This document shows positions 11,932-34,476 of a DNA stretch of 64,000 nucleotides, piece by piece. The stretch covers positions 1-64,000 of IMG/VR virus record IMGVR_UViG_3300014205_000212; one strand, 5' to 3'. The notes beneath the pieces were generated by a model, which was given only the letters and a program-made list of their open reading frames with translations, was not told where the DNA came from and did not search any database. Source of the DNA: a virus. Taxonomy: Duplodnaviria > Caudoviricetes. Within the stretch, counting starts at the first letter, position 1. Every line of letters starts with the position of its first letter. The position numbers and the translations under genes were made by a program.

Positions 11932-12174
11932 TTACGGCTGTGATATGCGATGTTTGGCGATTACGAGAACAAACCTATCAAAATACATAGAACGTGGACA
12001 ATACAATATTATGGAAACGATAAACTATTTATATGAATAAGAAAGAAAAAAGAATCCAAATTATCGCAATGCTTTACCAAAACATGGATAAAGTAGATGC
12101 AGATGAAACATTAAAACTTATTGATGAATTCAGCACTATGGCAGTAATAAATAATGCCGTATTACCGCATGTTA
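11932..12174 (+). repeat. attC-like site A0 (degenerate/chimeric; TTAC instead of TAAC; arms do not match)
   Basis: Right arm AATGCCGTATTACCGC-A-TGTTA is nearly identical to the right arm of site E0. Confidence 0.6.
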
Positions 12175-12293
12175 TAAACCGAAGGGAACTGTTAATTGAT
12201 TTTTCTATGAAAAGAAATAAAGCACCTGAAGAATTTAAGGCGCAATATGAGAAAGAAGTTGATGACTACTTAAAATCAATTAATAGTTTATAA
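12033..12293 (+). CDS. Cassette hypothetical protein (starts inside the A0 loop; stop is the TAA of TAAC)
   Basis: 86-aa ORF crossing GTTA in frame (NAVLPHVINR). Confidence 0.7.
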   Translation: MNKKEKRIQIIAMLYQNMDKVDADETLKLIDEFSTMAVINNAVLPHVINRRELLIDFSMKRNKAPEEFKAQYEKEVDDYLKSINSL

Positions 12294-12414
12294 CGGTTAC
12301 AAATATGAAACGGCAGGGATTACGTGCAAAACCCTATCAGCCGACTACAAATGATGAATAGTAGCACAAAGTATAAAATAAGCATTACGCCCTGCTGTTT
12401 TATATTTGATGTTA
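12291..12414 (+). repeat. attC-like hairpin A1 (124 bp)
   Basis: TAAC-GGTTA-CAAATATGAAACGGCAGGG...CCCTGCTGTTTTATATTTG-AT-GTTA; 19-bp stem with 2 G.T. Confidence 0.9.
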
Positions 12415-12435
12415 TGGTGCGTTTATTTTACTAAC

Positions 12436-12663
12436 ATGGTTGATTTTAACGGATTAGACACAAAAAAAAATGCTGTAAAACTTCAAGTAAAAACAGCAAC
12501 GATATTTATTTGGAAAGAAAGTAACTTAACTGCCCTTATTTCTGTTAGAGATAAAGATGGCAAAGCATTATGGCAAAAGGCGCATTGTGATGCTTCTGAC
12601 TTACCATTTGCTATTGAAGTTGCTAACAGAAATATACAGACTGGTATGTTTGAAACGGATTAA
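12436..12663 (+). CDS. Cassette hypothetical protein
   Basis: 75 aa from ATG 12436 within body 12411-12675. Confidence 0.65.
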   Translation: MVDFNGLDTKKNAVKLQVKTATIFIWKESNLTALISVRDKDGKALWQKAHCDASDLPFAIEVANRNIQTGMFETD

Positions 12664-12671
12664 ATGCACCA

Positions 12672-12759
12672 TAACGGTCGGCAATATGAAACGGTTGCCT
12701 TGTAAGACGTTTCAAATTTAGTAATAGCCTATCGGCAACTGTTTTTATATTGCTTGTTA
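12672..12759 (+). repeat. attC-like hairpin A2 (88 bp)
   Basis: GCAATATGAAACGGTTGCC/GGCAACTGTTTTTATATTGC. Confidence 0.9.
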
Positions 12760-12780
12760 GGCACAGTTAAATTTAAAACC

Positions 12781-12951
12781 ATGAAAAGAATAACTATTTG
12801 GTTAATGAAGCGCCAACTAAAAGCAGCAAAAAATTATCGTAATAATTTAGATAATAGTATTGTAATTAAAGCATATGACTACGTTATAAAGAATTACGAA
12901 GATACAATAATGTTTTTGCGTGCTGAACTTAAATCGAAGGCACGGTCTTAA
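12781..12951 (+). CDS. Cassette hypothetical protein
   Basis: 56 aa from ATG 12781 within body 12756-12962. Confidence 0.6.
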   Translation: MKRITIWLMKRQLKAAKNYRNNLDNSIVIKAYDYVIKNYEDTIMFLRAELKSKARS

Positions 12952-12958
12952 TTATGCC

Positions 12959-13084
12959 TAACGTTGATAATATGAAAAGTTGGGGGATTAAAAGAGCAAA
13001 AATATCGGGTCGCAACCGAAGCCTTGACGGTAGCTGGGAGGTAACATACACCGCTGCACCCCCAATTTTTTATATTATGTGTTA
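12959..13084 (+). repeat. attC-like hairpin A3 (126 bp)
   Basis: ATAATATGAAAAGTTGGGGG/CCCCCAATTTTTTATATTAT; 20-bp stem with 2 G.T. Confidence 0.9.
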
Positions 13085-13123
13085 GCAACTGGGCTTTATT
13101 TATAAACTTAAAACTAAATAAAA

Positions 13124-13330
13124 ATGGAAGTAAATGATTTAATAGACCTTAGATTCACTTCATCTACTAAGGGACCCATTCCTATCTCAAGAACTATAGA
13201 TGGGAAATTTGCCCTTATTAATGGAACATTCAGAGGTATAATTGACATAGGCTCTACTTGGAAATGTAGAATAGATAAAATAGAAAAGTTTAAAGTTATA
13301 ATAAGTCCAATATCATTACAGAAATTATAA
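13124..13330 (+). CDS. Hypothetical protein (TRAM-like beta-barrel possible)
   Basis: 68-aa ORF; PISRTIDGKFALI...GSTWKCRI...VII. Confidence 0.55.
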   Translation: MEVNDLIDLRFTSSTKGPIPISRTIDGKFALINGTFRGIIDIGSTWKCRIDKIEKFKVIISPISLQKL

Positions 13331-13354
13331 TAATAATTAATAAATTTCAATATT

Positions 13355-13747
13355 ATGGAAACAAAAAACAATGTATTAGTCGTTCTTAAATCTAAGTTAG
13401 ACTATAAAGAAAACAAATCAAATACAAGAGAGTTTACAAAAGAAGAGATAACTTTACTAAGAGAGTACTGTATCTCTTTAGATTACCATTTTTCAATTAA
13501 TAAGCAAAACAAGATAGTTAAGATATTCAATCCTATTACATTTAAATATGGATACCTTAAAGTTCTTAATAATGAGATATGCTATGGCTATTTCGTTAAA
13601 GAGAACGATAATTCTAAATTTATTGTAAAATATAATGTTCTCTTAGAGTTAAATAACTTTAAAAAAATAAAAGGTTATAATATAAGAGTAAATAGAATGA
13701 TCCAATCTGTTATGTTTGGTATATATGACTTAGAAATTTTAAAATAA
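13355..13747 (+). CDS. Hypothetical protein
   Basis: 130-aa ORF. Confidence 0.65.
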   Translation: METKNNVLVVLKSKLDYKENKSNTREFTKEEITLLREYCISLDYHFSINKQNKIVKIFNPITFKYGYLKVLNNEICYGYFVKENDNSKFIVKYNVLLELNNFKKIKGYNIRVNRMIQSVMFGIYDLEILK

Positions 13748-13755
13748 ATAGAATA

Positions 13756-14145
13756 ATGAAAAGAGATATTGATTGGAAAGGATTTCAAGAAAATGTAGAA
13801 ACCTATATTAAAAAAAATAGAGGCATAGGTGCAAAGTTTTTAAAAATATTATTCGATAATTATTCTACAAAGGGTATAAAAAATTTGAATATACAAAAAA
13901 CTGTAAAAAGTGATTTAGGTATTATTAGCGATAATACTTCTAACTTAGAAAATATTTTAGGAATGCTACACGAATTTAGGAATTGGAATAGGGAATGGGA
14001 TATTTACTTTGCAAAACACCCTAAAAATGTTGATGAGTTTGCAAAATTATTGTCAAAAAGATACAAAGTTAAACGTGTTAACGTTAATTATAAAAAATCG
14101 GTGAGGAGTTCGGAGCTACGGAACTATCAACTGATACAAAACTAA
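13756..14145 (+). CDS. Hypothetical protein reading into hairpin B0
   Basis: 129-aa ORF; the last ~22 codons are the left arm/loop of B0. Confidence 0.6.
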   Translation: MKRDIDWKGFQENVETYIKKNRGIGAKFLKILFDNYSTKGIKNLNIQKTVKSDLGIISDNTSNLENILGMLHEFRNWNREWDIYFAKHPKNVDEFAKLLSKRYKVKRVNVNYKKSVRSSELRNYQLIQN

Positions 14146-14203
14146 TTTAGTAGCAAGTGGTTTAAAATAAGCACGATACCCCACTGTTTTTTATAATGTG
14201 TTA
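14079..14203 (+). repeat. attC-like hairpin B0 (125 bp)
   Basis: TAAC-GTTA-ATTATAAAAAATCGGTGAGG...CCCCACTGTTTTTTATAAT-GT-GTTA. Confidence 0.8.
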
Positions 14204-14252
14204 TCGGCTGCCTTTTTAAAATTTAATTATTCACTTAAAAACTTAAATAACA

Positions 14253-14585
14253 ATGGAACAAATTAGAAATTCAGACCTTATCGAAGGTAAGACTATTGAA
14301 AGAACGGATTATTTAGATAATAAATTCTTTCTATTTTTTACAGACAATACCTTTTGTATAATATCAGGTTGTGGCTGGGATGAAAAAGATGTTGAATTTA
14401 ATGAAAATGAATTTGAAGTTGAACCTAATACAAGCAACTACGATGATCTTAAAAGTATTGGAATTATTGATGAAGCTACCTTCTTTAAATTTAAAGATCT
14501 TAAAGAACAAAATAGCAAAGAGTATAGAAAGCAACAAGACATTAAACAACTTAATGAATTACGCAAAAAGTATCCAGATGCGTAA
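14253..14585 (+). CDS. Cassette hypothetical protein
   Basis: 110-aa ORF after GTTATCGGCTG. Confidence 0.7.
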   Translation: MEQIRNSDLIEGKTIERTDYLDNKFFLFFTDNTFCIISGCGWDEKDVEFNENEFEVEPNTSNYDDLKSIGIIDEATFFKFKDLKEQNSKEYRKQQDIKQLNELRKKYPDA

Positions 14586-14666
14586 GGTTGCCGTATTAAA
14601 TACGAGAAATAAAATTTCAATTTACAACAAAACTACACGGGCAAAATGGCGTATGAGCCCGTGTTA
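14578..14666 (+). repeat. attC-like site B1, outer left arm deleted
   Basis: Remnant GATGCGTAAGGTTGCC; intact right arm GGCAAAATGGCGTATGAGCCCGTGTTA. Confidence 0.6.
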
Positions 14667-14701
14667 GCAGTTGTTTTTATTAATCTAAATATAAATTTAT
14701 T

Positions 14702-15079
14702 ATGAAATACGAAATTAAATATAAAGAACTTGAAAGTTATTTAACTTCTTTACCTGAAAAAGAATTTCAGGACAAAAAATATAATCCAAACGGAATTATT
14801 AAAGAGGCAGAATTGATGACAGATATTGACTTTTTTAAAAAAGATAAATCGAAATTCCCAATAAGTAAAGTTATTGATTACGGAATGCCATTTTTACTTG
14901 ATGCTTTAGGCAATGATTTATCTATATGTATTTTAACTAAAAGAAAATTTAAGCTACCAACTGGAAGACCAATACAAGCTAAATTAGACCGTACAATTAT
15001 ATCAAATTGTCGAAAAATATATGGAACACCTTTGAATGGATGCTGGGTAATACCTGAGCAGTTCGTGGTTTTAAAATAA
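14702..15079 (+). CDS. Cassette hypothetical protein
   Basis: 125-aa ORF filling body 14663-15087. Confidence 0.75.
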   Translation: MKYEIKYKELESYLTSLPEKEFQDKKYNPNGIIKEAELMTDIDFFKKDKSKFPISKVIDYGMPFLLDALGNDLSICILTKRKFKLPTGRPIQAKLDRTIISNCRKIYGTPLNGCWVIPEQFVVLK

Positions 15080-15083
15080 CTGC

Positions 15084-15207
15084 TAACCGTTGAAGCTATG
15101 ACCAGTAAAGGATTACGGAGCGATGCACTATCCACCGATACTAAGCTGGATGCGAGCTACAACGTTTGATTAACCACCACAACCTTTATTGGTTATAGCT
15201 TGTGTTA
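15084..15207 (+). repeat. attC-like hairpin B2 (124 bp)
   Basis: AAGCTATGACCAGTAAAGG/CCTTTATTGGTTATAGCTT; 2 G.T. Confidence 0.9.
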
Positions 15208-15253
15208 GTGCCAGTTATTTATTTGATTATCAATTTTTAAAAACAAAAATACA

Positions 15254-15820
15254 ATGAAGAAAATTAGCACACTTTACAAAAAAGACCCGAACGATTTAAG
15301 CAGGGTAATTAATGAAATTGCACCCGAAAATAAATGGGTAATTGATGGCGAAGGTATTCCGACACGCAAGTTTGATGGAACTGCAACCGCTATTATTGAT
15401 GGCGAATTATACAAACGATACGATGTTAAAAAAGGTAAGCAAGTGCCACTAAATGCGATACCATGCCAAGAGGCTGACGAAATTACAGGACACCACCCGC
15501 ATTGGATTAAATGCGACCGAAACAACCCAGCTGATAAATGGCATTTTGTTGGTTTTGATGCCTTAGAAAATAAAGAAGATGGAACTTATGAACTTTGTGG
15601 CGAAAAATTACAAGGCAACCCAGAACATTTAACTGGACACATTTTAGTTAAACACGGAATAGAAGTATTACCAGTAACCGACTTTTCATTTGAAGGAATA
15701 AAAAACTACTTATCAAATTCTGAATTAGATATTGAGGGTATTGTTTTTCATCATAAAAACGATGGGCGTATGTGCAAAATTCGCAAATGCGATTTCGGTA
15801 TCAAGCGGGCTGTTTTATAA
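15254..15820 (+). CDS. Cassette-borne RNA ligase-like nucleotidyltransferase (DUF5565/RLIG1-like)
   Basis: Motif I TRKFDGT, YELCG, motif IV EGIVFHH, motif V CKIR. Confidence 0.7.
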   Translation: MKKISTLYKKDPNDLSRVINEIAPENKWVIDGEGIPTRKFDGTATAIIDGELYKRYDVKKGKQVPLNAIPCQEADEITGHHPHWIKCDRNNPADKWHFVGFDALENKEDGTYELCGEKLQGNPEHLTGHILVKHGIEVLPVTDFSFEGIKNYLSNSELDIEGIVFHHKNDGRMCKIRKCDFGIKRAVL

Positions 15821-15827
15821 TTGGCAC

Positions 15828-15951
15828 TAACGGATTATATATGCGTTCGGTTGCTGACGCAAAACAGCACCAACTTAATTTAAAAAACAAAAGTAAAATG
15901 AAAGCACAAGACAACAAAAAAGAGAAAGCAACTGACGTATATACGTTGTTA
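15828..15951 (+). repeat. attC-like hairpin B3 (124 bp) containing a start codon
   Basis: TATATGCGTTCGGTTGCT/AGCAACTGACGTATATA; ATG at 15898 in the loop. Confidence 0.9.
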
Positions 15952-16107
15952 CCTGCCGTTTTAGATGAGATCATTGAATACATTGAAGATACTGAACAAA
16001 CCATTGATGGTGAATGGGGTTCGTGTAGAGACTTGAAAGAGTTGATTAGAGATAAACAAATGCCTGAATTATATGATAAGTTAATTGCTTTGAGAAATGG
16101 CAGGTAA
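15898..16107 (+). CDS. Cassette hypothetical protein (starts in the B3 loop; stop is the TAA of TAAC)
   Basis: 69 aa, MKAQDNKKEKATDVYTLLPAVLDE... Confidence 0.7.
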   Translation: MKAQDNKKEKATDVYTLLPAVLDEIIEYIEDTEQTIDGEWGSCRDLKELIRDKQMPELYDKLIALRNGR

Positions 16108-16141
16108 CTCACTTATATATACAGTTCAAAATATTGAAGTA
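16105..16141 (-). other. attI-like array-terminal site T1
   Basis: + strand TAACTCACTTATATATACAGTTCAAAATATTGAAGTA; homologous to T2 and T3. Confidence 0.7.
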
Positions 16142-16392: not shown

Positions 16393-16396
16393 TTAT

Positions 16397-16858: not shown

Positions 16859-16877
16859 TAATATAATTAATTTAATT

Positions 16878-17159
16878 ATGAATTACGAAGAATATTTACA
16901 AAAAGGGAAAGAACTCGAATCAGAATTTGAGAATAAGAAAACAGAATTAATGAAAGAATTTGTAAAGGCAAATAATCCTTATAAAATTGGTGACAAAATA
17001 ACAGACCATATTGGCTCAATAATTATTGAAAAAATGGGGTTTGCGTGGGGTTTCGGTAATAAGCCATGTGCCACATATACAGGTTTAGAACTTAAAAAAG
17101 ATGGCACTCCAACTAAAAAAGAATCACGTAGACAAGTGTGGCAGTCAAATATTGTCTAA
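16878..17159 (+). CDS. Hypothetical protein, probable eroded cassette gene
   Basis: 93 aa; stop is the TAA of TAAC at site C0. Confidence 0.7.
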   Translation: MNYEEYLQKGKELESEFENKKTELMKEFVKANNPYKIGDKITDHIGSIIIEKMGFAWGFGNKPCATYTGLELKKDGTPTKKESRRQVWQSNIV

Positions 17160-17168
17160 CATATGTTA
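17157..17168 (+). repeat. Collapsed attC-like site C0
   Basis: TAAC-ATAT-GTTA: both boxes present with the interior deleted, followed by CCGCCAG like other body starts. Confidence 0.6.
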
Positions 17169-17207
17169 CCGCCAGTTTTTATTTATTAATCTTAATATCA
17201 AAACTAT

Positions 17208-17813
17208 ATGAAATCATGGAAAGAACCTACAAAAGAAAGATGGGGAATGGATTATCGTCCCGGAATTACAGAAGAATTTTCACAACTAATTAAATTAGCT
17301 AAAGAAAAGATTGAGCCATTTTCATATAAAGAAATTTCAAGATATACTTATTACTTTAAAGTAAAAGGTGAGGAAATTTCGAGTGAATTTGATTGCTGCG
17401 ATGATGAAAAATGTATCAAAGAAGCCAAAAAAGCTATAAGAAAACAATACGGGAAAAATACGCATATTGAAGAATGTTATTCGGATAATGACGAAGACCA
17501 TGAGAGTATTGAAATATGTAGTATTTGTGGAAAACCTATGAATGAATATCTTACTTGGTGTAATTCAGAATTAGAGTACTTAGAAGAAAATAAACCTTGG
17601 GACGCTCAATTTTTAGCTGATGAAGGTTTTGTAATTGGCGTTATTTTAGATAGTACTCCAACTATGGATTGTAATATTTCAGATTATGCAAAATATCAAA
17701 AAGGCGAAACACTTCAAAAGGCATTACAATCAAGAGAAGAATTTTTTCAAAGAATCGGTAAATTAGCTCAATCAGTAATTGATGCAGACTTCGCTGTCTT
17801 AAATGGACGGTAA
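17208..17813 (+). CDS. Cassette hypothetical protein (acidic, Cys motifs)
   Basis: 201 aa; stop is the TAA of TAAC. Confidence 0.8.
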   Translation: MKSWKEPTKERWGMDYRPGITEEFSQLIKLAKEKIEPFSYKEISRYTYYFKVKGEEISSEFDCCDDEKCIKEAKKAIRKQYGKNTHIEECYSDNDEDHESIEICSICGKPMNEYLTWCNSELEYLEENKPWDAQFLADEGFVIGVILDSTPTMDCNISDYAKYQKGETLQKALQSREEFFQRIGKLAQSVIDADFAVLNGR

Positions 17814-17934
17814 CGGTGAAGCTATGACCAGTAAAGGAATGCGGGCTTCGTGCCTGTCAAAATAGTAGAAACTTAATAGAAAATACAAAATGAAAATTAA
17901 CGCAGAAACCCCCAATTGCATAAACATATTGTTA
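17811..17934 (+). repeat. Chimeric attC-like site C1 (124 bp)
   Basis: Left arm shares 21 identical bp with B2; right arm CCCCCAATTGCATAAACATATTGTTA is not its complement. Confidence 0.75.
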
Positions 17935-18360
17935 TATGCTGCTTTTTCTTCTATTCCATTAGATATTGAAGGTTCAAATTTAGAAAATACTGGTTGGATT
18001 CCTTCCGAAAATGATAAAAAGTATATGGATGGAAAAAACTATTTACTTGCTATTGAAGAAGCTAATTCCAAAAATGCTAAAGTAATATTTAAAAATGTAT
18101 CTCTACAATGGGATAGTTGTGATTGCGGAGATTATTATGGTTGTTCGCATGGGAATTATGTTTATGATATTGACATAATAAATGAAAATAAAAAAATTAA
18201 CATAGAATATACCGATGGAGATTCTCTGGAATTTTATAACAATGGGAAGTCCTGTAAGATTCCAACAGCAGGAGCAACTATTTTTGATTTTATAAGAATG
18301 TGTCAAATTTGTGAAATTGAATTAGAGCTAACAGATTACGCAGAAACTCTTTTAAAGTAG
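17890..18360 (+). CDS. Cassette hypothetical protein (starts in the C1 loop)
   Basis: 156 aa, MKINAETPNCINILLYAA... Confidence 0.75.
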   Translation: MKINAETPNCINILLYAAFSSIPLDIEGSNLENTGWIPSENDKKYMDGKNYLLAIEEANSKNAKVIFKNVSLQWDSCDCGDYYGCSHGNYVYDIDIINENKKINIEYTDGDSLEFYNNGKSCKIPTAGATIFDFIRMCQICEIELELTDYAETLLK

Positions 18361-18393
18361 CATATAATTTATTTATATGTGCATAAAAAGTAA

Positions 18394-18401
18394 TACTTTT
18401 G
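18394..18401 (+). promoter_or_regulatory. Bacteroidota -7 promoter element
   Basis: TACTTTTG(CA) matches TAnnTTTG; no clear -33 TTTG. Confidence 0.4.
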
Positions 18402-18599
18402 CATACTAATCAATTGAAATATAGACTATTAAATAAAAGCATTAAATTAAGTAAAAACGAGTTGCATTACTTATATATTTTGAAATTTAAATACAAAATG
18501 AAAGTTAATCAATTTATCCGTGATGCTATCATCGAAAAATTAAAAAAAGATGTTCCAGTAATAAGAATAAATTTTAATAAAGAATATGAACCATTCTAA
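18399..18599 (+). CDS. Ribbon-helix-helix-like DNA-binding protein (start uncertain)
   Basis: KSIKLSKNELHYLYILK...KVNQFIRDAIIEKLKK. Confidence 0.5.
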   Translation: MHTNQLKYRLLNKSIKLSKNELHYLYILKFKYKMKVNQFIRDAIIEKLKKDVPVIRINFNKEYEPF

Positions 18600-19843: not shown

Positions 19844-19847
19844 AATT

Positions 19848-20464: not shown

Positions 20465-21815
20465 AATACCACCTCATGATTTAAGAATAGAAGAAACTAT
20501 ATTAGGTCAGTTAATGATAGAAGTAAATAAAAATACTATTAATGCTATTAGCATCATTAATGAAGATGATTTTTATAAAGAATCACATAAATTAATTTAT
20601 AGAACAATATCTTTATTATATAAACGAGATAATGTTTGTAATTTCATTATTGTATGTCATGAATTAATGAAGATTCAAGCATTAGAAATAGTAGGTGGTA
20701 GTTATATTATAAGTACTTTATCTTCTAATGTATCTTCTACTTTAAATGTTATTTATCATGCAAGAATTCTTAAACAGTTATCAATTGCTAGAAAATTAAT
20801 TGCTATTTCATATAATGTTCAAACTTCTGTATATGAAATGAAAGATGTAAAAGAGATAATAGATACTTTAAATAAAGACATTAATAATATCTATAAAGAT
20901 GTTGATAAAGAAGATTCTATTGTCTTAGCTTCTAAAGTATCTGATGAATTAATGAAAGATTTATTAAATGATAATTTTGTATTAAATAAAAAGAATACAG
21001 GATTTAAAATTTTAGATAAAATAATTGGTATTACATTAAATAAAATATTATTAGTTGCTGGTCCTGCAAAACATGGGAAAAGTAAGTTTATAAGTATGAT
21101 AATGATGAATATTTTAGAAAAATATTCTGATGTAAGTATATTTTGGATTACATTAGAAGATTCTGCTAAAGATATCATTGCCGGTTATATTGCTTCTAAA
21201 ATTTTAATTACTCCTAAAGACATCATTGAAAGAACATATTCTAAAGACTGTAATTCTATTATTAAACCTCATATAGAGAAGTTTAAAACCTTTGATATAG
21301 AATTCCAAGAAAAAAGTGCTAAAGTGTCTCAATTTGGCATTAAATTCATTGAATTCTGTAAAATGCGAAAAGGAAGATTTAATATTTTAATAATTGATAA
21401 TATGCTTTCATTATCTGATAAAGATGATTTTAAAGGTAATGATAATGGAATGTATGATTATATTATGCTTCAGTTATTAAATATTAAACAAAGGACTAAT
21501 GCTTTAATAATTCCTATTCATCATTATAGAGATGCTCAACAAGCAGAAGGAAAGATAGAAAGTGCATATAGACCAAGATTAATAGACATGAAAGGAACAG
21601 AAGCTTTTAGAAGAGTTCCTAATCAAGTATTACTATTAAATAATCCGGGAAAATATAAAGATTTAGTTATAGAATATAAAGGTCATAAAGACTTACTAAA
21701 GAGTATCTTTATATGTGATACTGGTGCTAATAGGAATGCTTCCGATGATGATGATAGTGCTTTAATAAGATTCTTTCACACACTAGAATTTAATATTTTT
21801 GAAGAAATAAATTAA
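20433..21815 (+). CDS. dnaB: DnaB-like replicative helicase
   Basis: N-terminal PPHDLRIEETILGQLM...EDDFYKESHKLIY, Walker A AGPAKHGKS, LIIDN, RPRLIDMKGT. Confidence 0.9.
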   Translation: MKERTLPEGTKIPPHDLRIEETILGQLMIEVNKNTINAISIINEDDFYKESHKLIYRTISLLYKRDNVCNFIIVCHELMKIQALEIVGGSYIISTLSSNVSSTLNVIYHARILKQLSIARKLIAISYNVQTSVYEMKDVKEIIDTLNKDINNIYKDVDKEDSIVLASKVSDELMKDLLNDNFVLNKKNTGFKILDKIIGITLNKILLVAGPAKHGKSKFISMIMMNILEKYSDVSIFWITLEDSAKDIIAGYIASKILITPKDIIERTYSKDCNSIIKPHIEKFKTFDIEFQEKSAKVSQFGIKFIEFCKMRKGRFNILIIDNMLSLSDKDDFKGNDNGMYDYIMLQLLNIKQRTNALIIPIHHYRDAQQAEGKIESAYRPRLIDMKGTEAFRRVPNQVLLLNNPGKYKDLVIEYKGHKDLLKSIFICDTGANRNASDDDDSALIRFFHTLEFNIFEEIN

Positions 21816-21839
21816 CGGTGAGCGTATGAAATCGTGTTA
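21813..21839 (+). repeat. Collapsed attC-like site D0 (27 bp)
   Basis: TAACGGTGAGCGTATGAAATC-GT-GTTA: left arm start joined to the last bases of a right arm. Confidence 0.7.
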
Positions 21840-21882
21840 GTTGCAGCCTTTTATTTAGTAATTAATTTTTAAAAACAAAAAT

Positions 21883-22230
21883 ATGAAAGTAACATTAAAC
21901 ATTGAAAACGATGCCGAAATGAGAGCATACGTTAAAGATTGCATTAAAGGACAAGTATTGTCAATTGTTCGTGAAGAAATGCAAGAAATGATTAAAGAAG
22001 AGTTGAACCGAAAAATAAAAGGGTTGAACGATTCCAATTTTCAGCGGATATTTACAGATGCGATGGTGAAGAATGTAAAAGACATTTTACAAGCAAATCA
22101 CAATGTGAAAAGCTGGGATAATAATTGGATTAAACCTATTATAGCTTCTTTAATGGAGCAATATGTAAAGCAAAACGAATCGTTAATTAATCAACTTGCA
22201 AAAGAGAAGGTTAAGTTGCTGGTTGGTTAG
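21883..22230 (+). CDS. Cassette hypothetical protein
   Basis: 115 aa filling body 21836-22242. Confidence 0.75.
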   Translation: MKVTLNIENDAEMRAYVKDCIKGQVLSIVREEMQEMIKEELNRKIKGLNDSNFQRIFTDAMVKNVKDILQANHNVKSWDNNWIKPIIASLMEQYVKQNESLINQLAKEKVKLLVG

Positions 22231-22238
22231 GTTGCAAC

Positions 22239-22444
22239 TAACGGCTGCGGGTGTGACATCGGTTTTTTTGCGGATTAACAACTAAAATTTAAAAATATGG
22301 TACAGATAGTAGAACAGACAAAGGAAGAAAAAATGGCAATGTATATGAAATTGTCTAAGAAGCAAATAGCAGAAATGCTTATTAATTGCAATAACATTAT
22401 AACAGCACTAACGCAAGCAAAAAACTGTGTTATACCTGCTGTTA
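22239..22444 (+). repeat. attC-like hairpin D1 (206 bp; loop encodes ~40 codons)
   Basis: GCGGGTGTGACATCGGTTTTTT/AAAAAACTGTGTTATACCTGC; 4 G.T. Confidence 0.85.
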
Positions 22445-22542
22445 TGGGTGAGTTAACTTGCGATAGTTGCGGTTGCCATCCAAATACAATATATCAAACA
22501 AGCAAGGGTCGGTTTTGTGAACGGTGCAATCCAGCAAGTTAA
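22297..22542 (+). CDS. Cassette zinc-finger-like protein (starts in the D1 loop)
   Basis: 81 aa; CDSC...CERC. Confidence 0.7.
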   Translation: MVQIVEQTKEEKMAMYMKLSKKQIAEMLINCNNIITALTQAKNCVIPAVMGELTCDSCGCHPNTIYQTSKGRFCERCNPAS

Positions 22543-22549
22543 TTACCCA

Positions 22550-22671
22550 TAATGGCTGCGGGTTTGAAATGTAAGGGATTTCAGAACGCTTCCGTATCAC
22601 ACGAGATAAATTAACTTAGTAGTAACCAGCTTTACAACAGATAAAACCCTTATATTTTAAACCCGTTGTTA
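22550..22671 (+). repeat. attC-like hairpin D2 (122 bp; TAAT variant)
   Basis: CGGGTTTGAAATGTAAGGG/CCCTTATATTTTAAACCCG; 2 G.T. Confidence 0.88.
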
Positions 22672-22689
22672 GGCACAGTACGGTAAATT

Positions 22690-22854
22690 ATGATACAATA
22701 TAAAACGAAGCAATTAATTCAAGTTCCTTGTAAAAATAAACTTACAGGTAGCATTGAAACATTTGAGATAATGGCTTATGATTTTTCAGATGCTAAAAAG
22801 GAACTTGAATGGGTTTTAGATTTACGATGGATAATTGGTTATGGTTCAATGTAG
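22690..22854 (+). CDS. Cassette hypothetical protein (54 aa)
   Basis: Below the track cut-off; MIQYKTKQLIQVPCKNK...GYGSM; fills body 22668-22867. Confidence 0.65.
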   Translation: MIQYKTKQLIQVPCKNKLTGSIETFEIMAYDFSDAKKELEWVLDLRWIIGYGSM

Positions 22855-22863
22855 TATTGTGCC

Positions 22864-22988
22864 TAACGGTTCGTGTATGACCCGTTTGGGATTAAATAGT
22901 ACAAACTTTCAAAATGGAACAAATGAATATAAATGACTTAGACTTTCAGCAAACTACCGAACCCCAAATGGGTTATGACACGGTGTTA
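22864..22988 (+). repeat. attC-like hairpin D3 (125 bp) containing a start codon
   Basis: CGTGTATGACCCGTTTGGG/CCCAAATGGGTTATGACACG; one bulged G on the 3' arm. Confidence 0.88.
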
Positions 22989-23156
22989 TCGGCAGGTATT
23001 TGTGATACTTGTTCTATTCCTAAAATGATGAATACAGGCGATGGTATAAATGAACCATCTGACCCTATTCTTTATTGTCATAAAATGAAACGTGAAATAT
23101 GTCCAGAACCACCAGAGGATAGGATGGTCGAATGTCGGTTTTATACTTGCCGATAA
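22914..23156 (+). CDS. Cassette Cys-rich protein (starts in the D3 loop; stop is the TAA of TAAC)
   Basis: 80 aa; CDTC...C...C...C. Confidence 0.7.
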   Translation: MEQMNINDLDFQQTTEPQMGYDTVLSAGICDTCSIPKMMNTGDGINEPSDPILYCHKMKREICPEPPEDRMVECRFYTCR

Positions 23157-23190
23157 CTCGTTTATATGTATAGTTCAAAAAAATGAAGTA
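23154..23190 (-). other. attI-like array-terminal site T2
   Basis: + strand TAACTCGTTTATATGTATAGTTCAAAAAAATGAAGTA; partial inverted partner at 23242-23258. Confidence 0.75.
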
Positions 23191-23302
23191 GTCTATATAT
23201 TAAATAGTTATATGTTTTATTGTATTCATTTTATATAATTATACTTCAATTTATTGAAATAATAGTAAATTAATAAATAATAGTAAACTAATAAATAATA
23301 AA

Positions 23303-30724: not shown

Positions 30725-30730
30725 AATATT

Positions 30731-30958: not shown

Positions 30959-31188
30959 TGAATAAAGAAGAAAAAGAATTATTTATAAATAATTTTATAA
31001 ATAGTATAAAAGAAGATTTATTATCTAAATTAGATTCTATTCCTGAAAATTGGGATGGATTTGAATTAAGACATTATATTAATATTAAATTCGAACAAGA
31101 AAATTTATGGAAAAGAAAAATATTAAGTAATACAGATAAAATAAGAAAACAAAGATGTCTTAATGATATTTATAATAATGGGTTGTAG
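30958..31188 (+). CDS. Hypothetical protein
   Basis: 76 aa, TAATG coupling. Confidence 0.6.
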   Translation: MNKEEKELFINNFINSIKEDLLSKLDSIPENWDGFELRHYINIKFEQENLWKRKILSNTDKIRKQRCLNDIYNNGL

Positions 31189-31393
31189 TGTATTAAATTG
31201 GAGTAGGGAGTTACATAATAAAAAAGTAACTCCTGACCGTAATGATGGTAAAATAACAGTTAAAATACCAAATGGATATATCACATTTTCCACTGAAGAA
31301 GAAAAACAAGATTGGCTTAAAAGATATTTAAATAAACAAATTGTTGAAAATAAACCTTTAAAATTTAATCGTTATAAAAAAAGAAATAAATGA
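31163..31393 (+). CDS. Hypothetical protein (start uncertain)
   Basis: 76 aa. Confidence 0.5.
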   Translation: MIFIIMGCSVLNWSRELHNKKVTPDRNDGKITVKIPNGYITFSTEEEKQDWLKRYLNKQIVENKPLKFNRYKKRNK

Positions 31394-31815
31394 AAGCAGA
31401 AGAATATAAAGACATTTTAAATCATTATATGTATCGTTTTAAATTAGAACATACAGATGAATATCATAATTATATAAAATTAAAATATTTCTATACAAAA
31501 AATTCAGAAATTACAGTAGATAATATTATAAAACTTGTATGTGAAGGAGAGAAAGTAGATATAGAAGATATGAAAAGAACCGGAAGAAATAGAAATTTAA
31601 ATATTCAACCTAGACAAATAGCTTCTTATCTTATTACTAAACACATTAAAGGACTTACATTAGAATCAATAGGTAAAGCTTTAAGAAATGAACCTTTAGA
31701 TCATGCAACAGTTATTCATGCTAATAAAACTATTAATAATCTTATAGATACAGATAAGAGAATGAAAAATAAATTAATTCATTATGAAGACATCATTAAA
31801 GCTTGGAAAGAATGA
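31390..31815 (+). CDS. Protein with DnaA C-terminal (domain IV) HTH
   Basis: RQIASYL...TLESIGKAL...DHATVIHANKTI matches the DnaA domain IV signature. Confidence 0.8.
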   Translation: MKAEEYKDILNHYMYRFKLEHTDEYHNYIKLKYFYTKNSEITVDNIIKLVCEGEKVDIEDMKRTGRNRNLNIQPRQIASYLITKHIKGLTLESIGKALRNEPLDHATVIHANKTINNLIDTDKRMKNKLIHYEDIIKAWKE

Positions 31816-32468
31816 CAGAGATAGAAAAGTTCTTTAAAGATACATATGTTAGAAATACACCTATAATAGAATATCTAAGAGAAGCTACAAGAAATAAATT
31901 AGCATATTTTATTCCTCTTAATACACCATCATTAAAAAATAGTAAACAGATACAACAGATATTTACTAAGAATTCTACTTGCTGTCATTCTAGAGGTGGA
32001 TTGGTTATTAAAACATCTACAGGAGGATTAATTTGTTCTCATTGTCAACAACCTTGTGGAAGACATACAAGACCTATTTTAAATGCTTCAGATGGCGTAC
32101 AGGAATATGAAAAAAATATATTACCTTTTGTAAATGTCTTTAAAGGTATATTTAAAGAATGGAAAGTAGGAAAGACAGAACCTTTAGTTATGTGTTTTTA
32201 TTTTATAAGAAACCAATATAGAGATTTTGATTATGGAAACGCTTCTGAGGTACTTTTAGATATGTTTAAAGACCAAACTGATAAGAAGACTAAAGAAGTT
32301 ATACCGAGATTAATTACTGATGATTGTATGCGTTTTGTAAAACCTTTCTTTCTAGGTTGTCATTATTCACAAGATAAACCTGGTACTATCATTACTTTAC
32401 TTACAAAAGAACTACTTGAAATATATAGTAAAGTATATTTAGATTATAAACCTAATACATTATTCTAA
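31803..32468 (+). CDS. RusA-like Holliday junction resolvase with a zinc-ribbon insertion
   Basis: IPLNTPSLKNSK, FYFIR...DFDYGN...DM...ITDD; inserted CC...CSHC. Confidence 0.6.
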   Translation: MERMTEIEKFFKDTYVRNTPIIEYLREATRNKLAYFIPLNTPSLKNSKQIQQIFTKNSTCCHSRGGLVIKTSTGGLICSHCQQPCGRHTRPILNASDGVQEYEKNILPFVNVFKGIFKEWKVGKTEPLVMCFYFIRNQYRDFDYGNASEVLLDMFKDQTDKKTKEVIPRLITDDCMRFVKPFFLGCHYSQDKPGTIITLLTKELLEIYSKVYLDYKPNTLF

Positions 32469-32740
32469 TGAAAACATATAAACCAATAACTAAAAAAATA
32501 ATAATAGATATATTAACCGATGTAGAACATTATAATCAAAGTCCATTAAATTTAATAATTAATGGATATAATATTGATGAAAATATCACTTGTAGAAAAA
32601 TATGTGTTAAAAAAGGTAGAATAGAATATTTCTATTATAAAGATTCTCCTGAAAGTATGGAAAGATTTAAAATGTTACTTAACCAAATATTAAATAGAAA
32701 TGAAAAAAGTAAGTATAGTAATAGTATCAAGAATGTATAA
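32468..32740 (+). CDS. Hypothetical protein
   Basis: 90 aa. Confidence 0.6.
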   Translation: MKTYKPITKKIIIDILTDVEHYNQSPLNLIINGYNIDENITCRKICVKKGRIEYFYYKDSPESMERFKMLLNQILNRNEKSKYSNSIKNV

Positions 32741-32888
32741 TGTAATACATGAAGATGATTTATCTGAAACAGGAATATTAAGATTAGCAGAAAACAACTT
32801 TGATAATGAAATTAACCTATTAACTTCTAATTTAGAAGATGGTGATTTTGCTTATGAAATAAAAAGTACTAACGATTATAAAGTTTGA
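32700..32888 (+). CDS. Hypothetical protein
   Basis: 62 aa. Confidence 0.55.
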   Translation: MKKVSIVIVSRMYNVIHEDDLSETGILRLAENNFDNEINLLTSNLEDGDFAYEIKSTNDYKV

Positions 32889-32889
32889 T

Positions 32890-33225
32890 ATGGAACAGTC
32901 ATTTATAGAAAAAAGAATTGCAAGTAAAGCAACTGAAAGAGTAGATAAAGATTATAGAGAATTTATAGATTTTTGTAATAAAAATCCTTTTGCTAAACAA
33001 ATACAAATTAAAGTAAATAATATAAATATTTTTTTAACTGGTAATAATTATAATAATCAAGAATTATTTTCTCCTCATAATACAAATAATAAAAATAATG
33101 ATTTTACCAACTATATAGATATATTCAATAAGCTTCAAAAAAAATATGAAAAAGAAGAAACAGAAATTTTACTTGATAAATTAGATAGTGTAAAATATTT
33201 ATTTGATAACTTAAATAACATATAA
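32890..33225 (+). CDS. Hypothetical protein
   Basis: 111 aa. Confidence 0.65.
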   Translation: MEQSFIEKRIASKATERVDKDYREFIDFCNKNPFAKQIQIKVNNINIFLTGNNYNNQELFSPHNTNNKNNDFTNYIDIFNKLQKKYEKEETEILLDKLDSVKYLFDNLNNI

Positions 33226-33230
33226 TTAAT

Positions 33231-33596
33231 ATGCAAAAACATACAGAAATATATTTAAATCATTTTCATCTTCATCAAGGAGAAGTTATAGTAAGTGAGA
33301 TATCCGGAACTACCAATGGTATAAACATTCATCATTTAGATTCTAAAAAGATGGGTGGTAGTGATACTAAAGATTATATAGAGAATCTATGTGCTATTAC
33401 CATTACAGAACATGAGTTATGCCATAGATATAAAGAATATAATGAATATGTAAAGAAGATACATGAATTATTCTTAACTATTAATCCTTATTCTTATCCT
33501 CATCTCTTTCTTGATAATACAATTTATAAAAAATATCAAAAAGATTTATATCAGATACTTAAAGAATGTGGACATTATAAAAAATATAGTAAATGA
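33231..33596 (+). CDS. HNH endonuclease-like protein
   Basis: NIHHLDSKKMGG...IENLCAITITEHELCH. Confidence 0.7.
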   Translation: MQKHTEIYLNHFHLHQGEVIVSEISGTTNGINIHHLDSKKMGGSDTKDYIENLCAITITEHELCHRYKEYNEYVKKIHELFLTINPYSYPHLFLDNTIYKKYQKDLYQILKECGHYKKYSK

Positions 33597-33611
33597 ATAT
33601 AGATAATAATG

Positions 33612-33739
33612 TAACGGCTGGCGGTATGCGGTCGTTGCCGAACTATCAAATTAGTAATAACTTAAATACGAGAACAAAATTATGAATACAGAAAAAAGTA
33701 TCAACGAAGCGGAAGGCAATGCCGTATTACCGCTTGTTA
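33612..33739 (+). repeat. attC-like hairpin E0 (128 bp) containing a start codon
   Basis: GCGGTATGCGGTCGTTGCC/GGCAATGCCGTATTACCGC; ATG at 33682. Confidence 0.85.
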
Positions 33740-34050
33740 CCACCCGTTTTTTATTGCTCAGTCTGAAATGGACTAACAAAAAAGATAAGTGGTTTACGTT
33801 TTGGCGTGAAAATTCAGCAGGGTATTGCTGGTTCAAAGAATGGTGTGGACTTTATGATATTGAAAAAGCAAGAGAAACGCACGGACACGACAATACTATT
33901 ATGGTTGATGGATTCCTTATTAAACACCTTTGGAAAGAAATTGAATACGAAGGTAAAAAACGTGAAATACTTCCAAATACGGAAGAGGTGCGTAAATTTT
34001 TATCTATTCAACTTCGAGATTTAAAAGCATTGCACCGCACTACTCATTAA
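33682..34050 (+). CDS. Cassette hypothetical protein (starts in the E0 loop)
   Basis: 122 aa, MNTEKSINEAEGNAVLPLVTTRF... Confidence 0.75.
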   Translation: MNTEKSINEAEGNAVLPLVTTRFLLLSLKWTNKKDKWFTFWRENSAGYCWFKEWCGLYDIEKARETHGHDNTIMVDGFLIKHLWKEIEYEGKKREILPNTEEVRKFLSIQLRDLKALHRTTH

Positions 34051-34058
34051 ATGGGTGG

Positions 34059-34148
34059 TAACGTTTTGCGTATATACGAGGTACGCCTTAACGATGAATT
34101 TTAAATTACAACAAACGCTTATAGGCGTATCTTGTATATACGCTGTTA
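34059..34148 (+). repeat. attC-like hairpin E1 (90 bp)
   Basis: GCGTATATACGAGGTACGCCT/AGGCGTATCTTGTATATACGC; 21-bp stem with 2 G.T. Confidence 0.9.
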
Positions 34149-34163
34149 GCACCAGTACGGATT

Positions 34164-34430
34164 ATGAGAACTGAACTAAATTTATATGATGACAAATTAA
34201 AACAAGCAATACTTGATTTGCCATACAATACAAAGATTGATGATAATGGTGTTGATTGCGATATGGTTTTCATCCCTGAAAGTGATTATGGATTTGCTGA
34301 AATATACAGAATGTACGATGATATTTTAGTTTTTTTAATCCCAACTTACGGAGGAACACCATCATTGCAATATCACGTTAGTAGACACGCTATTGATTAT
34401 CTGATTTCTGAATTGAAAAAGATAACGTAG
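34164..34430 (+). CDS. Cassette hypothetical protein
   Basis: 88 aa filling body 34145-34443. Confidence 0.75.
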   Translation: MRTELNLYDDKLKQAILDLPYNTKIDDNGVDCDMVFIPESDYGFAEIYRMYDDILVFLIPTYGGTPSLQYHVSRHAIDYLISELKKIT

Positions 34431-34439
34431 TATTGGTGC

Positions 34440-34476
34440 TAACTAGTTTATATATATAGTTCAAAAAAATGAAGTA
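34440..34476 (-). other. attI-like array-terminal site T3
   Basis: + strand TAACTAGTTTATATATATAGTTCAAAAAAATGAAGTA; perfect 21-bp inverted partner at 34536-34556. Confidence 0.75.

Follow-up and report, generated by a model that had tools for sequence, protein, structure and literature searches.

Complementary cassette ends with a recurrent G.T pair as the probable outer stem of attC-like hairpins in Bacteroidota phages

The window analysed here, a 64-kb stretch of phage DNA (64,000 nucleotides), carries four arrays of cassettes bounded by GTTA and TAAC, with end sequences that vary between cassettes and are complementary within most of them. This end code is probably (at roughly 0.8) the outer half of a recombinase-binding R stem, belonging to the attC-like hairpins of an integron-like cassette system of Bacteroidota phages. 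The arrays of related phages adjoin a simple Xer-type recombinase instead of a true integron integrase. An earlier note on this DNA had read the ends as the record of selection on a circular intermediate; taken as a whole that interpretation is partly supported, and its argument is the classic reasoning applied to integron cassettes, not a new principle.

The window contains 16 GTTA cassette ends, all at positions listed in the earlier note. Recounting confirmed G at +11 in 15 of them, against a background G frequency of 0.156 (binomial p ~1e-11); the sole exception, end 22441, has A opposite T. The claim that T stands opposite in most bodies also agrees with the data, T being found at -11 in 14 of 16 partner ends, with the decayed ends 14079 and 14583 as exceptions. 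The six intervening bases (N6) are perfectly complementary in 10 of the 16 cassettes (12411/12672, 14663/15084, 15204/15828, 15948/16105, 17931/18365, 21836/22239, 22668/22864, 22985/23154, 33736/34059 and 34145/34440). A single mismatch or wobble occurs in three more, two mismatches occur in one, and the last two lack a partner. Pairing runs 3-4 bases past the G.T pair, over positions 12-15.

All array features lie on the + strand, and paired energies below refer to the + and - strands in that order. Array 1 opens with hairpin module H1 (11932..12174), which has a degenerate TTAC core, L''/L' arms resembling those of module 33612, and a loop in which ORF 12033-12293 starts. Cassette body 1 (12171..12294, GTTA TAAACC G ... 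T AGTTTA TAAC) pairs at 5/6 N6 positions, with G/T at 11, and is followed by a 124-nt attC-like module (12291..12414) with an arm fold of -15.6 and -11.8 kcal/mol. Body 2 (12411..12675, GTTA TGGTGC G TTTA ... TAAA T GCACCA TAAC) and body 3 (12756..12962, GTTA GGCACA G ... T TATGCC TAAC; N6 5/6) both have G.T at 11 and paired positions 12-15, and are separated by an 88-nt module (12672..12759; -14.1 and -12.4 kcal/mol). A 126-nt module (12959..13084; -13.3 and -12.4 kcal/mol) leads to unit 4 (13081..14082, GTTA GCAACT G), which is without a cognate far end, showing no complementarity and A at -11, and contains a low-GC insert with three ORFs, the GC content of the body being 0.24. Unit 5 (14200..14586, GTTA TCGGCT G), preceded by a 125-nt module (14079..14203; -9.0 and -10.2 kcal/mol), also shows no complementarity, its far end being decayed (TAAG at 14583), and the module that follows is degenerate, with a TAAG core (14583..14666). 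Body 6 (14663..15087, GTTA GCAGTT G TTTT ... AAAA T AACTGC TAAC) forms 15 pairs with G.T at 11. A 124-nt module with folded arms (15084..15207) precedes body 7 (15204..15831, GTTA GTGCCA G TTAT ... ATAA T TGGCAC TAAC), which encodes an RNA ligase (phrog_14301, E 7e-71). The last unit, body 8 (15948..16108, GTTA CCTGCC G ... T GGCAGG TAAC), follows a 124-nt module (15828..15951) with an ORF start in its loop at 15898; a related module in locus L005 has the identical N6, CCTGCC. The array is closed by an attI-like site, TAAC TCACTTATATATACAGTTCAAAATATTGAAGTA (16105..16141), resembling the TAAC-TMCYATATGTA site found 5' of the recombinase gene of relatives.

Array 2 opens with a TAAC-ATAT-GTTA stub (17157..17168) and comprises body 9 (17165..17814, GTTA CCGCCA G ... 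T GGACGG TAAC; N6 4/6, G.T at 11), a module with poorly paired arms (17811..17934; ORF start in the loop at 17890), body 10 (17931..18368, GTTA TATGCT G CTTT ... AAAG T AGCATA TAAT, the TAAT being read at 18365) and a degenerate attI-like site (18365..18400). Immediately following a DnaB-like helicase gene, array 3 begins with a truncated module retaining the L'' half only (21813..21839), and continues with body 11 (21836..22242, GTTA GTTGCA G CCT ... AGG T TGCAAC TAAC), a long module of 206 nt (22239..22444) within which ORF 22297-22542 starts, body 12 (22441..22553, GTTA TGGGTG A ... T TACCCA TAAT; A-T at 11, TAAT read at 22550), a module with a TAAT core (22550..22671), body 13 (22668..22867, GTTA GGCACA G TAC ... 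GTA T TGTGCC TAAC), a 125-nt module (22864..22988; -14.5 and -11.2 kcal/mol; ORF start in the loop at 22914) and, as last unit, body 14 (22985..23157, GTTA TCGGCA G GTAT ... ATAC T TGCCGA TAAC) joined to an attI-like site (23154..23190). Array 4 is opened by a module (33612..33739; -14.7 and -14.0 kcal/mol) whose loop holds the start of ORF 33682-34050, followed by body 15 (33736..34062, GTTA CCACCC G TTT ... AAA T GGGTGG TAAC), a 90-nt module (34059..34148; -16.1 and -12.4 kcal/mol) and the last unit, body 16 (34145..34443, GTTA GCACCA G TAC ... GTA T TGGTGC TAAC). Its attI-like site (34440..34476) is followed by an inverted copy at 34536-34571.

Covariation of the ends was assessed in a larger set of 84 distinct cassettes, 76 of them from phage contigs other than the window; their loci were reached via two proteins only, so that the cassettes are not a random sample. 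Watson-Crick pairing of cognate ends reached 0.71-0.93 at positions 5-10, where shuffled partners gave 0.28-0.42 and the pair of ends flanking one hairpin gave 0.26-0.43; at positions 12-15 it reached 0.68-0.86, and over both segments together the two controls gave 0.26-0.55. Mutual information between cognate ends was 0.5-1.6 bits (0.68-1.58 at positions 5-10) versus at most 0.31 bits in 1000 shuffles, which is the covariation expected from the proposal that the six bases vary freely yet stay complementary within a cassette. The set contains 67 distinct N6 words, and homologous RNA-ligase cassettes alone use GTGCCA, GCAGAT, TACGCT, TGCGCT and GGGCAA, all of which have partners that are largely complementary. 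The ends of neighbouring cassettes in this set showed no covariation at positions 5-10 or 12-15, and among the 84 cassettes the pairing signal was marginal at position 16 and absent from position 17 on. A continuous stem between cognate ends thus stood up to the larger sample, at a length of 15 pairs instead of the 11 first proposed. The G.T pair, described as fixed, proved constant on one side only: T at -11 is invariant (84/84), and +11 is G in 64 cassettes, C in 10, A in 7 and T in 3, so that G.T occurs in 64/84. The ten cassettes with C are bulged, the G coming at +12.

Folding of the predicted junctions was in agreement with the pairing statistics. Hairpins were detected by an energy threshold of our own rather than by a validated attC model. 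On the + strand, joining the two ends lowered the mean energy from -18.3 kcal/mol in the array context to -25.6 kcal/mol, an average gain of about 7 kcal/mol, with the joined form more stable in 81 of 83 cassettes. The joined junction of the - strand averaged -21.5 kcal/mol, and the + strand was lower in 83/83. The ends are not adjacent in the joined form; they make up the stem at the base of a hairpin module of about 110 nt that lies between them. A second fixed G.T pair (TAAC-G with T-GTTA) occurs at the inner edge of the stem in 78 of 104 sites. Of 94 folded sites 90 were readable, and 61 of these have a bulge of 2-4 nt on one side only.

Several patterns place the point of exchange within TAAC. 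Homology between the window and locus L002 spans exactly GTTA to TAAC over the RNA-ligase cassette (15202-15831), the homology blocks of loci L005, L035 and L028 stop at TAAC, and that of L005/L035 also begins there. Right ends of homology blocks fall at TAAC 22-24 times versus 3 times at GTTA, and left ends 35 versus 12 times, so that GTTA accounts for roughly one in four left ends linked to a site. Every array, moreover, has a hairpin module first and a body joined to the attI-like site last. The shared cassettes, block ends and array ends indicate that units move by crossing over in TAAC. As array ends and homology blocks put this crossover at the coding-strand TAAC, each cassette consists of hairpin plus body, with the hairpin 5' of its ORF. 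Hairpin and body also reassort, an identical body being found with differing modules and one module with differing bodies, which a single crossover point leaves unexplained. Neither a circular form nor an empty site was observed.

In 25 loci T-N6'-TAAC terminates the array, TMCYATATGTA comes next, and the ATG of a recombinase gene on the same strand lies 55-56 nt downstream. About 25 contigs of related phages and Bacteroidota MAGs carry this association of array, attI-like site and recombinase, and the arrangement is identical in Flavobacterium, Pedobacter and Saprospiraceae MAG contigs. The linked enzyme is a 276-aa Xer-like tyrosine recombinase with 21 residues where VchIntIA (2a3v) has 64, and is thus without the IntI-specific insert. 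It scores 185 bits against the XerA model (cut-off 220) and 160 bits against the integron integrase model (cut-off 265), and its best matches among solved structures are XerA and XerC-like proteins. Neither the window's record nor four related phage records rated complete contain a tyrosine recombinase. The enzyme acting on the sites of this phage is probably a recombinase of this Xer-like kind, encoded in a part of the genome absent from the record, by a co-infecting phage or by the host.

In the proposed mechanism the mobile unit, read on the + strand, would be C, hairpin module, T-GTTA-N6-G-N4, one-ORF body and N4'-T-N6'-TAA, with crossover inside the common TAAC core and, by analogy with integrons, probably between A and C. 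Within the array a module lies between two mismatched ends, the far one of the unit before it and the near one of the unit to which it belongs, and therefore only TAAC/GTTA would pair. Joining the ends of one unit, as in an excised circle, would create beneath the hairpin a continuous stem of four fixed pairs, six free covarying pairs, one T.G and four further covarying pairs. Inward of it would follow the second fixed G.T, a bulge of 3-4 nt confined to the cleaved arm, and a long L stem. The circle is the form that selection appears to act on, and the + strand the likely folded substrate; on the - strand both fixed wobbles would turn into C.A mismatches. On the cleaved strand the scissile site would lie between an arm of 11 nt (T-N6-TAA) and six central nucleotides (C-G-N4), which we take to be the geometry of a Xer/dif half-site. 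Whatever the array neighbour, the recombinase would constantly meet only TAAC/GTTA, T and G. A role of the G.T pair as a putative recognition element, as first suggested, is plausible from sequence: the fixed T.G may delimit the binding arm on its outer side and help in choosing the strand. The second G.T, at the inner edge, makes strand choice an equally good reading.

Pairing of the ends could instead take place within the linear array, each body being looped out by its own 15-pair stem in the single-stranded DNA of phage replication, so that TAAC sites keep a full R duplex without leaving the array; the target of selection would then be excision or array structure. The stem is long enough, with the energy gained on joining, many window bodies are short (110-650 nt), and array sites would otherwise have a 4-bp R box only, given the adjacent-end control of 0.26-0.43. 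We nevertheless regard it as unlikely, since the R and L stems of one site could not stack as a simple hairpin and the R stem would sit between the arms of two different modules; bodies of up to 2 kb in the larger set pair in the same way, and canonical integrons, which have similar cognate pairing, pass through circles (PMC2727003). Still less probable is that the phage acquired ordinary bacterial integron cassettes (CALIN) of canonical polarity, served by a host IntI, with G/T as the signature of a host attC lineage. The attC-type AAC/GTT core and R/L architecture of the hairpins fit this, as do integrase-less attC clusters published for phages and recombined by IntI1 (PMC9892861). Against it stand the crossover at the coding-strand TAAC, the position of the hairpin 5' of its ORF with six ORFs of the window starting inside modules, the IntI-insert-free recombinase beside the arrays of relatives, the finding of true IntI in a single one of the 301 genomes sampled from the host class, and the breaking of the GTTRRRY purine/pyrimidine rule at positions 5-7 in the larger set.

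Because the folded strand is the coding strand, the hairpins could also be mRNA elements acting in processing, stability or translation control, the pairing of ends being a by-product. On the sense strand every fixed wobble reads G.T and would give stable G.U in RNA, and ORFs start within hairpin loops; yet an RNA-level role, which we hold to be very improbable, leaves unexplained why unrelated phages cease to be homologous precisely at TAAC, why a conserved site next to a recombinase gene terminates the arrays and why the ends of a unit, lying hundreds of bases apart, have to match. Chance, or the terminal inverted repeats of small transposon-like elements, has a negligible probability and is refuted by the chance-pair, shuffle and adjacent-end controls. 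GTTA is indeed common in the AT-rich window, at 616 copies, no more than expected, but chance GTTA-N6/N6'-TAAC pairs from the same loci have AT-rich N6 and a random position 11, against the strong bias to G seen at +11, and with 67 N6 words a transposase model would require one enzyme per element.

The integron-like cassette system favoured here was compared with canonical attC rules (PMC5027507, PMC2727003), integron cassettes being known to go through circles (PMC2727003). Like integron attC sites (class 1, Vibrio chromosomal), the phage sites are imperfect hairpins with an AAC/GTT core and crossover in the core on a folded strand; there is one ORF per unit, and arrays lie, here in relatives, adjacent to both an attI-like site and the gene of a tyrosine recombinase. 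In both, the cassette takes along the R-box portion that lies past the crossover, so that the ends of a cassette match each other and not their neighbours. The phage system differs in its 15-pair stem with invariant T at -11, usually opposite G, in the second fixed G.T at the inner edge, in having a bulge of 3-4 nt on one side where integron sites have a two-sided spacer, and in the absence of the RRRY rule at positions 5-7; its ORFs run towards the attI-like site and recombinase gene where present, and its carriers are phages. Ten class 1 cassettes showed 8-13 contiguous cognate pairs without a fixed T.G, with G at +11 in 1/10 and an ordinary A-T at this position in most.

Qi et al. 2023 (PMC9892861) describe 17 small phage clusters of two or more predicted attC sites, detected by IntegronFinder and HattCI and tested with IntI1. 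These clusters share with the present arrays attC-like sites between small ORFs, virulent phages, records without an integrase and DNA methyltransferase cassettes (here a Dam-type methylase, the last cassette at locus L021). The paper mentions neither crAss-like or Bacteroidetes phages nor a Xer-like recombinase beside arrays, and the inverted ORF polarity and the position-11 rule do not appear in the sections considered here.

A different parallel is offered by Xer recombination at dif and by CTX-type phages (IMEX elements), which use a folded single-strand attP. The recombinase of the phage arrays is Xer-like by sequence, the 11-nt arm ending in TAA, scissile site, roughly 6 nt and second arm recall dif, and the substrate would likewise be a folded single strand. 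Unlike a single element at a chromosomal dif, the phage system forms many-cassette arrays with their own hairpins, has an attI-like site of its own next to the recombinase gene and leaves the outer arm sequence free, pairing alone being required. Vibrio cholerae repeats (VCRs), near-identical attC sites with unrelated cassettes, are comparable in that the inner hairpin module is highly conserved and the cargo differs; the common module is, however, spread over different phages and not within one chromosome. Close copies of module 33612-33739 occur in other phage contigs with both flanks different, the whole TAAC-to-GTTA module being present in four of them. Unlike VCRs, this module supplies a start codon, together with a short leader that is read through into the body.

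The record is 74,106 bp long with about 25% G+C (the window being its bases 1-64000) and is 39% complete according to CheckV. Its four short arrays lie on the + strand between 11.9 and 34.5 kb, within a block of early/replication genes encoding a DnaB-like helicase, an SbcC-like ATPase, a RadC-like protein and a DnaA-C domain protein. In the arrays, attC-like hairpin modules (TAAC ... GTTA, mostly 88-128 nt in the window) alternate with bodies of 110-650 nt that usually carry one ORF each and have the form GTTA-N6-G ... T-N6'-TAAC, N6 being the variable bases 5-10 of a body end. The sites form clusters of 8, 2, 4 and 2, as in CALIN elements (at least 2 attC sites close together, integrase absent nearby); these counts include stubs and degenerate or truncated modules, and the sites were called by fold energy. 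Nothing in the 74-kb record matches PF00589, the tyrosine recombinase family, no Rfam family matched within the window, and no near relative of the DnaB-like helicase, which might have revealed an empty site, turned up.

The earlier note had described the body ends as GTTA, six variable bases and a G at the eleventh position (+11), with T as its partner at the far, TAAC end (-11) and the six bases complementary within a cassette. All 16 of the GTTA ends that it named are present. G occupies +11 in 15 of them, whereas G makes up 0.156 of the bases in the region (p ~1e-11). Its partner position holds T in 14 of the 16 units, and N6 is complementary within the unit perfectly in 10 of 16 and near-perfectly in four, the two unmatched cases being decayed units (13081 and 14200).

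A larger set of homologous cassettes was reached via two proteins only. The RNA ligase encoded by the window cassette at 15204-15831 on the + strand (phrog_14301) has relatives in 49 viral contigs, several of them within like arrays. The second protein, a 276-aa tyrosine recombinase, is encoded right after the array of L021, a 33-kb phage record rated complete; its relatives added 34 viral loci and eight genomic loci from MAGs, three of which, labelled Flavobacterium, Pedobacter and Saprospiraceae, show arrays. Hairpins were detected by arm fold energy within TAAC...GTTA, with a threshold of our own and with the flanking bases under test left out. The yield was 104 hairpins and 84 cassettes, all unique, with 76 of the cassettes lying outside the window; the 84 cassettes are not phylogenetically independent.

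N6 covaries in this set. Between cognate ends (n=84), Watson-Crick pairing at positions 5-10 reaches 0.90, 0.93, 0.93, 0.88, 0.87 and 0.71, goes on at positions 12-15 with 0.86, 0.81, 0.80 and 0.68, and is at background from position 16 on; shuffled partners pair at 0.27-0.55 and ends flanking one hairpin in the array at 0.24-0.43. Mutual information at the ten variable paired positions is 0.5-1.6 bits, versus at most 0.31 bits in 1000 shuffles, and 67 distinct N6 words occur among the 84 cassettes. Five N6 words occur among the RNA-ligase homologues alone; they differ widely, and each faces a mostly complementary partner. The same N6 is found at window position 15948 and at 5348 of the related contig L005, and again at window position 17931 and at 4797 of L022, the bodies being unrelated in both pairs; in the first pair the hairpin modules are related.

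G at +11 is likewise above background in the larger set, position 11 being a T.G pair in 64 of 84 cassettes. The invariance claimed for this pair held for its T, present at -11 in 84/84 cassettes, and failed for its G, +11 being G in 64, C in 10, A in 7 and T in 3. The C class carries G at +12 and reads as a one-base bulge. In a subclass of the form GTTA-N5-T-C-GGYT ... RRC-T-G-N5'-TAAC, the extruded C lets G(+12) pair with the invariant T and the stem go on; it is seen at L010:1749, L022:4327 and 5416, L005:7009, L059:1782, L067:6503, L069:349 and L072:3240. Since their N5 words differ, the subclass is a site variant and not a single cassette family.

In the full set most hairpins measure 114-133 nt and a minority 61-93 nt; the arms fold at -10 to -20 kcal/mol. 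Like integron sites, these are imperfect hairpins with paired R and L boxes and an AAC/GTT core. When the far end of each cassette was joined in silico to its own hairpin, as in an excised circle, the + strand folded with a mean of -25.6 kcal/mol, versus -18.3 kcal/mol with a foreign array flank, in agreement with the expectation of the earlier note; the joined form was lower in energy in 81 of 83 cases. The - strand junction had a mean of -21.5 kcal/mol, the + strand being lower in 83/83; this is indirect evidence for a possible single-strand recombination as in integrons, where the bottom strand recombines and replication resolves the product. In its usual order the fold comprises a 15-pair outer stem formed by the two ends of the body (the R stem), the core C-G pair, an inner wobble, a one-sided bulge and a long L stem. 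The inner wobble joins the G that follows TAAC to the T that precedes GTTA. It is found at 78 of 104 sites (T directly precedes GTTA at 16/16 window sites) and adds to the position-11 T.G, so that the + strand R stem has a bracketing G.T at each end; the - strand has a C.A mismatch in place of each fixed wobble. The bulge, of 2-4 nt and restricted to the TAAC arm, occurs at 61 of 90 readable sites and is the main unpaired feature, the conserved bases of the 3' arm, T(-1), A(-7) and T(-15), being mostly paired or in wobble. Integron attC sites have their extrahelical bases, a G in L'' and a distal T, on the arm that faces the AAC triplet.

Comparison of loci indicates what moves. Homology between the window and L002 is limited to 15202-15831, that is, from GTTA to TAAC. 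In L005, L035 and L028 the ligase body is common up to TAAC and diverges immediately beyond, and in L005 and L035 the upstream hairpin is also common, homology beginning at the TAAC of that hairpin. Over all loci, the right-hand border of homology blocks falls at TAAC in 22-24 cases and at GTTA in 3, the left-hand border at TAAC in 35 and at GTTA in 12. In addition, every array opens with a hairpin module and closes with a body whose TAAC adjoins a non-hairpin site. These four lines agree, and the unit is therefore taken to be hairpin plus body, with crossover in the TAAC of the coding strand. Hairpins and bodies also reassort, one body having been found with different modules.

The non-hairpin site has the form TAAC-TMCYATATGTA and lies 55-56 nt upstream of the recombinase ATG, on the same strand, in 25 loci (TAAC-TACTATATGTA... 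in the L021 type); as in integrons, the attI-like site and the end of the array are found beside the recombinase gene, and this site is taken to play the part of attI. At the four array ends of the window the sequence is TAAC-TNNNTTATATRTA, degenerate in one case, and none of these ends has an adjoining recombinase gene; an exact scan of viral contigs for the attI-like 21-mer of the window gave 0 matches. Cleavage in canonical integrons takes place on the folded bottom strand, at the A/C step of AAC (PMC5027507; PMC2727003), and a crossover in TAAC on the presumed folded strand of the phage sites agrees with this rule. Gene polarity differs: the phage ORFs are on that strand, with the hairpin 5' of the gene (six window ORFs start inside a hairpin loop), and read toward the attI-like site and, in relatives, toward the recombinase gene, unlike the canonical arrangement of attC 3' of the ORF and ORFs reading away from attI under Pc.

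The two ends of a phage cassette match each other and not their neighbours, as expected of integrons, and cognate ends also match in a class 1 control consisting of the tag-anchored ends of 10 annotated cassettes from three plasmids. Cognate class 1 ends show 8-13 contiguous pairs (12-13 in five of ten, none beyond 13), so that pairing past the heptamer is not special to the phage system. Position 11 of the class 1 ends is an ordinary A-T or a mismatch, with G(+11) in 1/10. Specific to the phage sites are the invariant T(-11), its usual G partner, four extra pairs, the inner G.T and the one-sided bulge, and their 15-pair stem with two fixed G.T pairs departs from the design of attC. Nor do the phage ends follow the integron rule RYYYAAC / GTTRRRY: position 4 is always A, position 5 is A in 1, C in 17, G in 31 and T in 35, and positions 6-7 are unrestricted. 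The passages retrieved from PMC9892861, on phage attC clusters, do not mention crAss-like or Bacteroidetes phages, a Xer-like recombinase beside arrays, a position-11 rule or inverted gene polarity, and a literature search for phage integrons returned nothing closer than that article.

Xer-like in sequence, the L021-type recombinase has archaeal XerA and a XerC-like protein as its best solved relatives. Its score is 185 bits with XerA_Arch (cut-off 220) and 160 bits with the integron integrase model TIGR02249 (cut-off 265). Where the integrase VchIntIA (2a3v) has 64 residues it has 21, and the IntI-specific insert is therefore missing; it is not an IntI-clade integrase with an extra domain between patches II and III. 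On the accepted view, recombination in integrons depends on this domain, through which IntI senses the extrahelical bases of a folded attC site. Among the isolated phages searched no close relative of the L021-type enzyme was found, the best being at 33% identity in a Polaribacter phage. Of 301 genomes sampled from the host class, one had a true IntI, whose flank held one attC-like site, too few to compare. Xer enzymes act at dif sites, two arms of about 11 bp round a central region of 6-8 bp, and cleave at the arm border. The presumed cleaved strand of the phage site, T-N6-TAA/C-G-N4 (putative cut at the slash), would fit this layout.

Several other origins were considered for these ends. Chance GTTA-N6/N6'-TAAC pairs do arise elsewhere in the window, with AT-rich N6 and a random base at position 11; these differences and the excess of G(+11) rule out chance as the source of the cassette ends. 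Transposon terminal repeats and intercistronic terminators were rejected as readings. The canonical polarity, with crossover at G/TTA and the hairpin 3' of the ORF, was rejected because arrays open with a hairpin, the piece next to the attI-like site at their other end is a body, and homology stops at TAAC. The central inference of the earlier note, that the ends form one continuous stem in an excised circle and record selection on it, is the classical integron-cassette argument; it is well supported by the covariation and by the evidence of unit movement, short of proof. A stem spanning the body in linear single-stranded DNA of the array would use identical pairs, and is regarded as a minor alternative to the circular intermediate.

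The fixed bases of the ends are exactly those that any array neighbour still presents, T(-11) bounds the 11-nt arm, 10 nt 5' to the presumed scissile bond, and the T.G wobble weakens the - strand only. On these grounds the T.G pair would fit a mark for register and strand choice. Tentatively, with a probability of roughly one in three, the T.G at position 11, the inner G.T and the free paired bases may form a code for recognition, register and strand, read on a folded single-stranded site by a plain Xer-type enzyme lacking the extra domain of integron integrases; this would be an independent or ancestral form of integron chemistry, driving gene exchange among Bacteroidota phages, with the four arrays of this phage served in trans. 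A large phage-borne array family retains the AAC/GTT core and cassette logic, with a short Xer-like enzyme adjoining in relatives, and its arrays document a route for the exchange of small accessory genes between Bacteroidota phages, RNA ligases and DNA methylases among them. Current integron finders search for IntI and canonical attC; the end code offers a simple rule for locating cassette borders in phage genomes.

Individual modules and sites show further features. In L021, the cassette adjoining the attI-like site and recombinase gene (2264-2763) encodes a Dam-type N6-adenine methyltransferase (PF05869, E 3e-19), and the large terminase subunit gene comes after the recombinase gene. Module 33612-33739 has close copies in other phage contigs, with different flanking sequence on both sides; those in L108, L109, L111 and L112 align over the full TAAC-to-GTTA length and those in L107 and L113 over the 3' part only. 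An ATG lies in its loop, and the 3' arm codes for a short leader, MNTEKSINEAEGNAVLPLV, whose reading continues across GTTA into whichever body comes next; module 11932-12174 ends with a relative of this leader, NAVLPHV. A loop motif like AATTTAGTARTA is common to many hairpins (e.g. 12712-12722, 14144-14154, 22615-22625 and 33648-33658), several body 5' leaders hold a resembling word, and the motif may be a promoter-like element. At the attI-like sites, an inverted copy of the AGTTCAAAAAAATGAAGTA part lies 50-80 nt downstream (34444-34571, 23172-23260, 18468-18486), the copies at 34458/34539 forming a 21-bp perfect stem; such copies may act as a terminator or belong to the site.

Two arrays open without a full hairpin, one with a stub at 17157-17168 (TAAC-ATAT-GTTA) and another, directly 3' of the DnaB-like helicase stop, with a remnant at 21813-21839 that retains the 5' arm only (TAAC GGTGAGCGTATGAAATCGT GTTA). 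Unit 4 includes about 1 kb (13124-14060, 24% G+C) that carries three small ORFs, lacks a matching far end and looks like phage-backbone DNA or two decayed cassettes fused. Elsewhere in the window, one ORF of 5514 residues fills 45963-62507 on the - strand, and the neighbouring large - strand genes that were scanned against PHROGs gave zero matches. Finally, GTTA recurs every 24 nt at 9524-9911 within ORF 9236-10048, which weakly matches the C-terminal beta-helix repeat of T4 gp5 (PF22178, E 1.3e-5, below cut-off); the repeat is a coding one and has no connection with the cassettes.
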